A stretch of DNA of 64,000 bases from an uncultured cyanobacterium (GCA_963719515.1 CAVRCJ010000003.1:288001-352000); one strand, 5' to 3'. Positions 53,075-54,508 are shown, counted from the stretch's first letter. Notes: generated by a model not told the origin, from the sequence alone. Numbers and translations are program-made.

Positions 53075-53968
53075 TTACCGCGACAGCTCTATGCGCGTAG
53101 AAGTCATCAACGCTTGAACCATGGCTCGACAGAGCGCACCCTCGACGACTTGGTCAAACCGAACAAACATGGGTGAACTGTTGAGTTCTAGAAAGGCGAG
53201 CCGTTGAGTTTTTGGGTCCGTCTTAAAGTCGGCTGCTCCAAAATCCATTCGTAGCGCCGCCATCAAGGCCCGTAGTTTCTCGACTTCAGGCTGCGGCGAG
53301 TCTAGCGGTACGAGATCTACATCCTGCTTGACGCGGTAGTCCAGAGACGGACTCTGAACCTCAAACGCAAAGGTGCGATCGCCCACCACATAAACTCGAA
53401 TTTCTGGCGCAACGAGTCGATTTTGCACAATGGCCGGAGTCGCACTACAGCCGTGGCGCGGCTGTAGCGATCGCAGCAGGTCGTCTAGGGGATAGCAAAA
53501 ATCGCCCCCCGCTACAGGTTTGGCGATCGCCTCCTTGGCGTCGAACTGCGCGAGCTGCGCGGCGTCGTTGGTGATGCAGATGCTAGGAATCGTCAGGCCC
53601 TGCTGCTGAGCCAGCATGAGCAGGGCCGGCTTGTTGCCTACGGCAGTCTGCTGCTGTCGGTTGAATAGCCGGATGTCTGGCTGAGAGAGCAGCCAGCCGT
53701 ACATTGCCTGGTACCAACCCGCCGATCGCTGCGCCGCTTGAGGCTTTTGGTCGTGAACGTCGTAGCGCAGGAAGGCCCCCCTCGGGGCGAGGGGCTGACC
53801 GTTTAGGGTCGCGCCACCGGACAGCCGCCAAGAGAAAGCTGGACTCGTCTCTGGGTGATGGCGGGCGTCCCGTATCGAGATGCCCATGAGGGTGGCAACC
53901 TCTATCAGCCGGGTGAGGTTGGGGTCCGAAGCTCCCCCGGCGATGAGTAGCGAATCTATCTGGGTCAC
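53075..53968 (-). CDS. ATP-grasp ligase, graspetide synthetase (RimK/PsnB-like)
   Basis: NKP..L..A...GL.IP...ITN; IAKPVAGG; VQ..L...EIRVYVVG; LDYR; FGAADF; FLELNSSP. Starts 15 bp after the precursor stop. Confidence 0.88.
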   Translation of the reverse strand: MTQIDSLLIAGGASDPNLTRLIEVATLMGISIRDARHHPETSPAFSWRLSGGATLNGQPLAPRGAFLRYDVHDQKPQAAQRSAGWYQAMYGWLLSQPDIRLFNRQQQTAVGNKPALLMLAQQQGLTIPSICITNDAAQLAQFDAKEAIAKPVAGGDFCYPLDDLLRSLQPRHGCSATPAIVQNRLVAPEIRVYVVGDRTFAFEVQSPSLDYRVKQDVDLVPLDSPQPEVEKLRALMAALRMDFGAADFKTDPKTQRLAFLELNSSPMFVRFDQVVEGALCRAMVQALMTSTRIELSR

Positions 53969-53983
53969 TGTGAGCGGGTAGCC

Positions 53984-54508
53984 TTAGTAGCGACCGAAGG
54001 GACCGCCGGGCTCTTCTTCGCCCACGGCCAGGGTGGTGACGGGACTCTCTTCCCCCAGCGCTAGGGTCGTGAAGTCCTCTTCTCCCAAGGCACGGGTAGA
54101 GGCCACTGGACCTTCTTCCCCCAGGGCGCGGGTAGAGACTACCGGATCCTCTTCGCCTAGAGCCAGGGTAGTGATCGGCGCTGGGTCAGCGGATGCCGTT
54201 CTAAATTCAGAGGCGTGAACCGTAAGTGAATTGGTCCGTGCGGTGACAATGACGGCGTCTGCGCCGTTATCCGGGGTGATGCTGATGGAGGCAGAAATGG
54301 GGGACAGCACCTGGGGAACGATGTCCGTGGGCCGGTCGGCGTCAAAGCTAAATTCGAGAACGGCATCTCCGGGGGTGGGGTCGGCGGAGTTGTCGAGCCG
54401 AGGGTTGGTCCAGCCGGGGGTGGCGGCGAGCCCAGAGGCCTGGATGCAAAGCATTGGAGGTTCGCCGTGCTTGATGACGGTGACTTGGGTGACCTGGAGA
54501 ATTTTCAT
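53984..54508 (-). CDS. multicore graspetide precursor: ~100-aa N-terminal domain plus five (T/S)TxxxGEE cores
   Basis: TTLALGEE, STRALGEE, STRALGEE, TTLALGEE and TTLAVGEE at aa 113-165; adjacent to the ATP-grasp ligase. Confidence 0.88.
   Translation of the reverse strand: MKILQVTQVTVIKHGEPPMLCIQASGLAATPGWTNPRLDNSADPTPGDAVLEFSFDADRPTDIVPQVLSPISASISITPDNGADAVIVTARTNSLTVHASEFRTASADPAPITTLALGEEDPVVSTRALGEEGPVASTRALGEEDFTTLALGEESPVTTLAVGEEEPGGPFGRY

Follow-up and report, generated by a model that had tools for sequence, protein, structure and literature searches.

A two-gene graspetide cassette with plesiocin-type cores in an uncultured cyanobacterium and a candidate C-terminal follower for its ATP-grasp ligase

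A gene pair in an uncultured cyanobacterium encodes a precursor with five plesiocin-type cores and an ATP-grasp ligase. This pair probably belongs to a natural, follower-directed branch of the plesiocin-type graspetides, in which the cores would be stapled by means of the C-terminal tag GPFGRY. The reading was derived from comparison of sequences, and within it a follower role of the tag can be called quite likely. The window analysed is the whole stretch of DNA of 64,000 nucleotides (GCA_963719515.1, CAVRCJ010000003.1:288001-352000). We observed the anatomy of the precursor, its pairing with the ligase gene, the catalytic residues and, throughout the ligase clade, a strictly conserved tag in terminal position; known leader motifs are absent. 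Characterised graspetide ligases are, to our knowledge, switched on by an N-terminal leader. The ligase of the window would recognise its substrate through the C-terminal GPFGRY, a natural follower, and not through an N-terminal leader. As judged by comparison, the Phe of the tag would dock in the middle-domain pocket that in PsnB holds Phe15 of the PsnA2 leader, and docking would switch the ligase on. It would also free the N-terminus, which could then be dispensed with or taken up by an export leader or a folded domain; the end state in the window copy would be a folded domain with five stapled loops.

The ligase gene starts 15 nt after the precursor stop codon (Table 1), and the cassette is flanked by genes for a response regulator (OmpR-Hpt-receiver), an MscS channel and then QueA. 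A preliminary description of this DNA had reported a 174-aa ORF with five (T/S)TxxxGEE repeats, an LDYR-bearing ligase 15 bp downstream and no protease, transporter or tailoring gene adjacent to the pair, all of which agrees with our results: five non-overlapping [TS]TxxxxEE matches fall in residues 113-165, LDYR occupies residues 209-212, and the flanks hold only the genes just named. The description also had the ORF end in the repeats; the five repeats are there, but the protein runs nine residues further, to GPFGRY. Its (T/S)T core can be specified in that the first position is Ser in two of the five cores. The hairpin upstream of the precursor is likely a terminator that separates the cassette from mscS, with the reservation that the count of one hairpin there is not above chance (shuffles give 2.0 +/- 1.3). 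A genome-wide scan found one ligase of this family in the host, and the microviridin motif was absent from the 103,639 six-frame segments scanned. Two similar ORFs of 128-129 aa without Pfam family were also seen in the window (50498-50887 and 58021-58407), one of which adjoins the OmpR-Hpt-receiver regulator. Four genes with a C39 peptidase domain lie elsewhere in the host genome (contigs C11, C14 and C17); a double-Gly leader on which they could act is absent from the window precursor.

Table 1. Features of the graspetide cassette, in positions of the window
Feature	Position	Strand	Basis
Precursor gene (174 aa), encoding a folded N-terminal domain, five cores and a C-terminal tag	53984..54508	-	ORF
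N-terminal beta-sandwich domain, residues 1-105	54194..54508	-	AlphaFold2 model, fold search
Core 1, TTLALGEE, residues 113-120	54149..54172	-	pattern match
Core 2, STRALGEE, residues 125-132	54113..54136	-	pattern match
Core 3, STRALGEE, residues 137-144	54077..54100	-	pattern match
Core 4, TTLALGEE, residues 147-154	54047..54070	-	pattern match
Core 5, TTLAVGEE, residues 158-165	54014..54037	-	pattern match
C-terminal GPFGRY tag, residues 169-174, putative follower (ligase recognition) motif	53987..54004	-	comparison of relatives
ATP-grasp macrocyclase (ligase) gene, 297 aa, GTG start	53075..53968	-	ORF
LDYR motif, residues 209-212	53333..53344	-	ORF and alignment
Hairpin, 15-bp, between mscS stop and precursor start	54653..54685	.	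hairpin search

When the protein was shuffled 100,000 times, three or more [TS]TxxxxEE matches never occurred and two matches occurred in 7 shuffles; among the 103,639 six-frame segments of the genome, the precursor was the only one with at least two matches. Ester formation by this ligase family is very likely. If the ligase works as PsnB does, it would phosphorylate the core Glu with ATP, R191 being the counterpart of PsnB R213; Thr2 would then be esterified to Glu7 in the inner ring and Thr/Ser1 to Glu8 in the outer ring, and the two nested ester rings per core would add up to at most 10 water losses. In the portion of PMC10125368 covered, plesiocin is an inhibitor of elastase and chymotrypsin that acquired trypsin activity through a Leu-to-Arg core swap. 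If core residue 3 sets specificity here as in plesiocin, the three Leu cores of the window would therefore inhibit chymotrypsin/elastase-like and the two Arg cores trypsin-like serine proteases. Over 795 cores, this position holds Leu in 380, Met in 102, Arg in 99, Phe in 66, Gln in 43, Lys in 23 and Tyr in 22, and the number of cores per precursor rises from five in the window copy to as many as 17 in marine relatives. Because neither an export leader nor a cleavage enzyme was seen, the protein likely stays at its full 174 aa, the tail being stapled.

The ligase matched no Pfam family and scored below the cut-offs of the NCBIfam graspetide maturase models (TIGR04187, 76.7 of 350 bits), of the microviridin ligase models (45 and 38 bits vs 475 and 425) and of RimK (TIGR00768, 16.7 bits vs 143.4). 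PsnB was its best sequence match in the PDB (E 5e-12) and the best match of a profile built from 106 rows (E 1.2e-20, the next at 2e-12). In a fold search with the ligase model (pLDDT 91.8), PsnB again came first (Z 23.2, rmsd 3.4, 279 aligned, 22% identity), the Z-scores of PruB (21.9), RimK (21.8) and MdnC (21.8) being close. The assignment of plesiocin-type cores and a non-RimK ligase in the preliminary description is in line with these matches and scores. K150, R191, D210, Y211 and R212 are invariant in 106 rows, as is LDYR in the 106 aligned relatives. With PsnB numbering taken as chain position minus 20, K150, R191 and DYR210-212 align to PsnB K172, R213 and DFR233-235, which the text seen of Song et al. 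(bioRxiv 2021.03.09.434688) ties to nucleotide binding, Glu recognition and activity. The family comprises 404 proteins at 90% clustering, and clustering at 50% identity gives 248 clusters with E values up to 1e-30; among the matches listed (150 of the 248 clusters), all exceed 210 bits, vs 100-120 bits for the sister clade. At 50% identity, the ligases of the branch make up well over 100 clusters, whose members come from cyanobacteria, Acidobacteria, Proteobacteria, Gemmatimonadota and Myxococcota.

The occurrence of the tag was scored in 80 metagenome loci fetched by the ligase profile alone (best 80 of 109). A precursor was present in 72 of them, and 71 of these precursors end in [PAS][FLM]Gx[FY], a pattern written after the loci had been inspected (54 strict PFGx[FY], 13 ALG, 4 other); the single exception, L030, ends in SPFERY. 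The 72 precursors include close kin and near duplicates and are non-independent, and the tag helped to select several of the 10 single-core precursors among them; with these 10 left out, the tag is found in 61 of 62. In the background, one of 4,414 core-free segments ends in the tag pattern. Five of the eight loci lacking a precursor have less than 30 nt upstream of the match, and three (L044, L062, L092) have enough flank with no precursor found. Neither LFIEDL nor HPF occurs in any of the 72 locus precursors. The first core lies at most 15 residues from the earliest possible start in 12 of 60 5'-complete precursors, a count that leaves out the IS-split L027 and L030 from 14 rows. A further search, which had the tag in its query, listed 120 precursor matches, 103 of which end in a PFG-type tag and none of which contains LFIEDL; the last residue of the tag is Phe, Tyr or Arg, with Arg in place of the last aromatic in 16 of the 103. 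The preliminary description had made its reading depend on TTxxxxEE neighbours of the ligase homologs; this pairing recurs in 18 of 21 genome loci, with the ligase downstream of the precursor, as well as in the 72 of 80 ligase-fetched loci (best 80 of 109). The other three genome loci are a contig edge (L003), a fragment (L020) and a Cellulomonas locus (L021), discarded as a family member since it is a chance match in a genome without the ligase.

In all 92 scored cases the tag stands 0-1 residue from the stop codon, as the pattern used prescribes. Among these 92 tags, every codon for Pro (four), Phe (two) and Gly (four) is in use, and the tag is also retained where a precursor follows the ligase or stands separate from it (three in L033, two in L051, and L090). 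Because the synonymous codons are fully used and the tag is kept by precursors away from the ligase start, we regard the tag as conserved at the protein level; for the same two reasons, a by-product of the ligase ribosome-binding site was discarded as its origin. Several unusual arrangements were noted among the relatives. In L033:3166-5341, three tagged precursors surround one ligase, two upstream and one downstream. In Crocosphaera, transposase-like ORFs interrupt the core array of the precursor gene (L015:6001-8178, L027, L030:1788-3977), and the downstream piece retains six cores and the tag. At L100:1831-5527 and L101:1789-6106, a tagged precursor and ligase adjoin HopA1-like/APH-kinase genes, at L101 also a LanC-like gene, and these are possibly graspetide-lanthipeptide hybrid clusters. 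Two Planctomycete precursors (P0107, MEM9645742.1) have a twin-arginine-like N-terminus and many cores, and end in GFRRW instead of PFG.

Ligase trees, built without the PsnB sequence, place the tag-bearing loci in one clade (FastTree, 126 rows; 95 rows in the clade, support 99). Separate from it stands a cyanobacterial sister clade, in which the precursors begin with HPF(D/E/G)L and are without the tag; IQ-TREE on 34 chosen rows agrees (supports 100 and 99). Within the tag clade, tag type tracks the ligase tree (ALG subclade 98, GPFGAY-rich subclade 100), whereas the N-terminal modules do not: a single clade of the 11 rows with a window-type domain, a group named after the first tree had been seen, was rejected (p-AU 0.0002). 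This difference supports a follower role. So does the distribution of motifs among the 151 group 2 rows seen in the Carter 2026 supplement, counted by eye, where 28 have the tag, 61 have LF(I/V)xxL or HPF, none has both and 62 have neither. A precedent that lends support by analogy is RPFG in the ThfA leader, active at the C-terminus in the portion of PMC13003496 covered. Sister-clade ligases L103:2375-3505, L131:2406-3608 and L144-L146 go with precursors of 200-400 aa that have long N-terminal regions, up to 11 cores and no tag.

Other observations speak against the follower. Read from the gap-free part of the phmmer alignment, the PsnB leader-pocket residues Y171, I193, L196, V201 and F203 correspond to A149, R171, C174, A179 and V181 of the ligase, and R181 and R192 to Y159 and P170; they are thus not kept, whereas sister-clade ligases retain a PsnB-like pocket (F149, R170, L174, V/I179). 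To this may be added the SPFERY end of L030, the three ligases with no precursor found, the Arg for the last aromatic, and, in the sources as far as covered, an Aureimonas neighbour without the tag and a myxomiditide follower that is dispensable (PMC12848669). In favour of the follower, eight fixed differences separate 70 PFG from 15 ALG ligases. Four of them (156, 159, 180, 181) lie in the leader-binding region, and position 181, which matches PsnB F203, is Val in PFG ligases and Ile where the tag has Leu for Phe; the bearing of these differences on tag recognition is only suggestive because they reflect one evolutionary event. Complex prediction for the ligase with precursor residues 143-174 (score 0.01, mark 0.32) spoke neither for nor against it.

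The changed pocket fits a new ligand but equally an unused pocket, and in the latter case the ligase might need no recognition peptide and act on the cores alone, the tag being conserved for another partner, which might serve in export, be a protease (for processing or as target) or be a binder of the PDZ type. We consider this unlikely. The remodelled pocket is consistent with it, as are the contribution of the cores themselves to binding in PsnB (about 6-fold in the text covered) and the strict terminal position of the tag, which suggests a binder of a free C-terminus; because the 62 of 151 rows cited above lack the tag as well as a leader motif, recognition may be possible with neither of the two. 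No transporter or protease, however, is shared among 89 neighbouring ORFs of 31 loci (ORF picking is crude in GC-rich loci). The tag also spans several phyla with the ligase alone in common, and its agreement with the ligase tree and exclusion of leader motifs in the rows covered argue for recognition by the ligase.

The precursor's N-terminus holds no LFIEDL, HPF or double-Gly leader. AlphaFold2 predicted residues 1-100 with pLDDT above 90 in every ten-residue block and the precursor beyond residue 105 as disordered. The domain of residues 1-105, an Ig-like sandwich, matched no Pfam family, and Foldseek returned no match at E 0.001; the best fold match was to NigD-like Bacteroides proteins (rmsd 2.9, 93 aligned) with Z 6.7, a level that the fold-search tool calls common. 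Atlas matches were unnamed clusters of 106-133 aa at 0.91-0.92 and a named match at 0.77 only, and when only the domain served as query, 15 proteins matched, each a member of the precursor family. A resemblance of the domain to PrcB_C (PF14343) or a chagasin-like protease inhibitor was considered. It found no significant support, with no match in Pfam or Foldseek, an hhalign value of 0.5% against PrcB_C-bearing relatives and neither family in the top 50 of a wide fold search.

Across relatives, the front end of the precursor is variable: it may be missing altogether, be a double-Gly leader or consist of unrelated folded domains. In L028:222-704 and L029:1068-1517, the cores are fused to another N-terminal domain, one with two Cys (hhalign probability 0.2% against the window domain), and the ligases of these loci nest among those paired with the window-type domain. 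P0081, P0109 and the P0085-type proteins carry further N-terminal modules on tagged arrays, namely PrcB_C (E 2.8e-8 in P0081) and a domain distantly homologous to that of the window (hhalign 95.6%). Because, apart from the cores, the short end tag is the only part of the precursor that the relatives have in common, the enzyme likely grips its substrate by the tail. The folded domain, or a motif inside it, could still be the leader of the window copy with the tag incidental, but this is very improbable. The domain is well conserved in cyanobacterial members (precursor identity 55-84% in the top rows of the alignment), and folded or long leaders exist in other RiPP classes according to the part of PMC13003496 covered; the domain does not track the ligase tree, however, and within one ligase clade the precursors may lack any N-terminal region, have the unrelated domain of L028 and L029, or have a double-Gly leader.

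Decay of the window copy, with a ligase weak or inactive in this genome and functional elsewhere in the family, appears equally improbable. The ligase has the shortest beta6-alpha3 loop of the 106 rows (9 residues; three of 106 are under 12) and His at position 72 (F72H), where 69 of 70 PFG-type ligases have Phe, and relatives have been broken by IS or truncation (L015, L016, L027, L030). Both reading frames of the window are nonetheless intact, the catalytic K, R and DYR are present and the copy falls within all 35 invariant columns (by construction), while a short loop recurs in two close relatives and the model reaches the pLDDT given above. That the ligase would take the tag's own terminal carboxylate as a substrate, activating it and closing an extra ring to Thr/Ser/Lys or the N-terminus, is the least credible alternative: ATP-grasp enzymes act on carboxylates, RimK-type enzymes on protein C-termini, and the distance of the tag from the stop is fixed in the 92 cases scored by the pattern, but no conserved extra donor residue was seen, the last tag residue varies, and in the material covered the PFG precedent is a binding motif, not a reactive site.

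The horizontal acquisition put forward as probable in the preliminary description can be called no more than possible, with a GC3 typical of the genome (38th and 47th percentile for the two genes), no mobile gene or tRNA near the cassette and closest relatives that are cyanobacterial. The distribution of the cassette is patchy. The ligase was not found in four genomes of the same genus (80-93% complete), and its clade is present in two of 401 genomes of the phylum; a precursor pattern search gave 20 loci, nearly all from cyanobacteria. In the five relatives searched, the genes that flank the cassette lie on different contigs, that is, they are unlinked there. Viral contigs yielded no confirmed relative of the ligase, and plasmids gave distant ligases only (24-32%). 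An old transfer or patchy loss could each account for the distribution.

On balance, we lean towards a broader proposal drawn from the same comparisons: in a large group 2 branch, the Pro-Phe recognition motif would have left the leader and come to occupy the last five residues, the N-terminus would have been refilled repeatedly with export leaders or folded domains, and whole proteins would carry arrays of stapled protease-inhibitor loops of mixed specificity. If so, the branch would be a counterpart in nature to the leader-to-follower design that was engineered in 2026, and a natural five-residue terminal tag would show a RiPP recognition motif changing ends in evolution. It would explain precursors whose first core begins at residue 2-4, as seen in seven tag rows of the Carter 2026 supplement portion covered. 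A tag of 5-6 residues would then direct ester macrocyclisation onto the tail of any protein, and so small a tag would let cores be stapled onto folded proteins with no leader to cut.

A plain group 2 cassette in a cyanobacterium is ordinary and already catalogued. The preliminary description, in which cyanobacterial graspetides were mostly microviridins and this core class a different one, was right about the plesiocin-type cores and overstated the surprise. In the part covered of Makarova 2022 (PMC8939145), 14 of 27 gr_02 rows of the tree table are cyanobacterial, 13 of them besides the Moorea ortholog, and Moorea producens 3L EGJ32583.1 is a known group 2 precursor (cluster10071), whose contig is our locus L005, a direct ortholog. 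The same source gives Phhx(1,2)h as a general leader motif at the N-terminus, and puts the Moorea ortholog ligase at leaf 2761 and labelled gr_02 rows at 2394-2433; by this leaf order it appears to lie outside the plesiocin branch. Carter 2026 (PMC13097080), as far as covered, assigns all three tag types to Group 2, includes Symploca, Okeania, Leptothoe, Angelobacter and Longimicrobium rows, and gives no match for 'follower' in its main text. The catalogued orthologs, Moorea and others, have the same precursor family and ligase clade as the window pair, but were published by core motif only, and the texts covered do not discuss the C-terminal tag. Likewise, the portions seen of PMC9576775, PMC12291112 and bioRxiv 2023.06.21.545981 do not mention it.

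In the literature covered, no report of a natural follower-directed graspetide was found; the papers that define the subgroups and their supplements may discuss the branch. Lee 2017 and Lee 2020 reportedly define the group 2 subgroups, Lee 2020 subgroup 2a. Beside Moorea in the Makarova tree, in the part covered, stands an Aureimonas ligase whose precursor has neither PFG tag nor known leader motif. A second conserved C-terminal tail, approximately P(V/I)xLxxK(I/L)Hx, was seen in the group 2 precursors covered from Aureimonas altamirensis, Aureimonas populi and Rhizobium wenxiniae; these have a double-Gly-type leader and no HPF or LFIEDL motif, and the tail is possibly a second follower type.

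Compared with plesiocin itself (PsnA2/PsnB of Plesiocystis pacifica, group 2a, PDB 7DRM-7DRP), the window pair has in common the multi-core TTxxxxEE precursor and a single adjacent ATP-grasp ligase that keeps the catalytic K, R and D-aromatic-R; PsnB is its closest match and its orthologs are assigned to group 2. The ligases are only 22% identical when aligned by structure, however, and the pair lacks the N-terminal LFIEDL leader and the leader-pocket residues of PsnB, and has a folded N-terminal domain and a C-terminal PFG tag. The pair thus appears to work like plesiocin and is group 2 by core, without the leader features of group 2a. Makarova cluster434 and Rheinheimera RcpA/RcpB, in the sources covered, share TTxAxGEE cores and a ligase of about 300 aa with the window; RcpA/RcpB is a characterised group 2 pair in which as many as 5 waters are lost from RcpA and C39 cleaves it at a GG site (PMC11626197). 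Precursors of the cluster434 type begin with HPF(D/E)L, mostly with a double-Gly site, and have no PFG tag, and their ligases form a clade separate from that of the window, with the PsnB-like pocket kept. Microviridins (MvdC/MvdD, MdnB/MdnC) share the ATP-grasp fold and a Pro-Phe recognition motif (PFFARFL), but have a TxK(Y/F)PSD core, two ligases and an N-terminal leader, whereas the window has another core and one ligase. The engineered fuscimiditide system ThfA/ThfB resembles the window tag in its PFG-containing motif and in driving a graspetide ligase from the C-terminal side. In the part of Johnson 2026 (PMC13003496) covered, RPFG is the key recognition sequence of the ThfA leader, and the leader, moved to the C-terminus, works there in an arrangement called unnatural. 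That system relies on an engineered, moved leader of 27-67 aa and Thr-Asp stem-loop cores; the window has a natural terminal tag of 5-6 residues and Thr-Glu hairpin cores, with recognition predicted.
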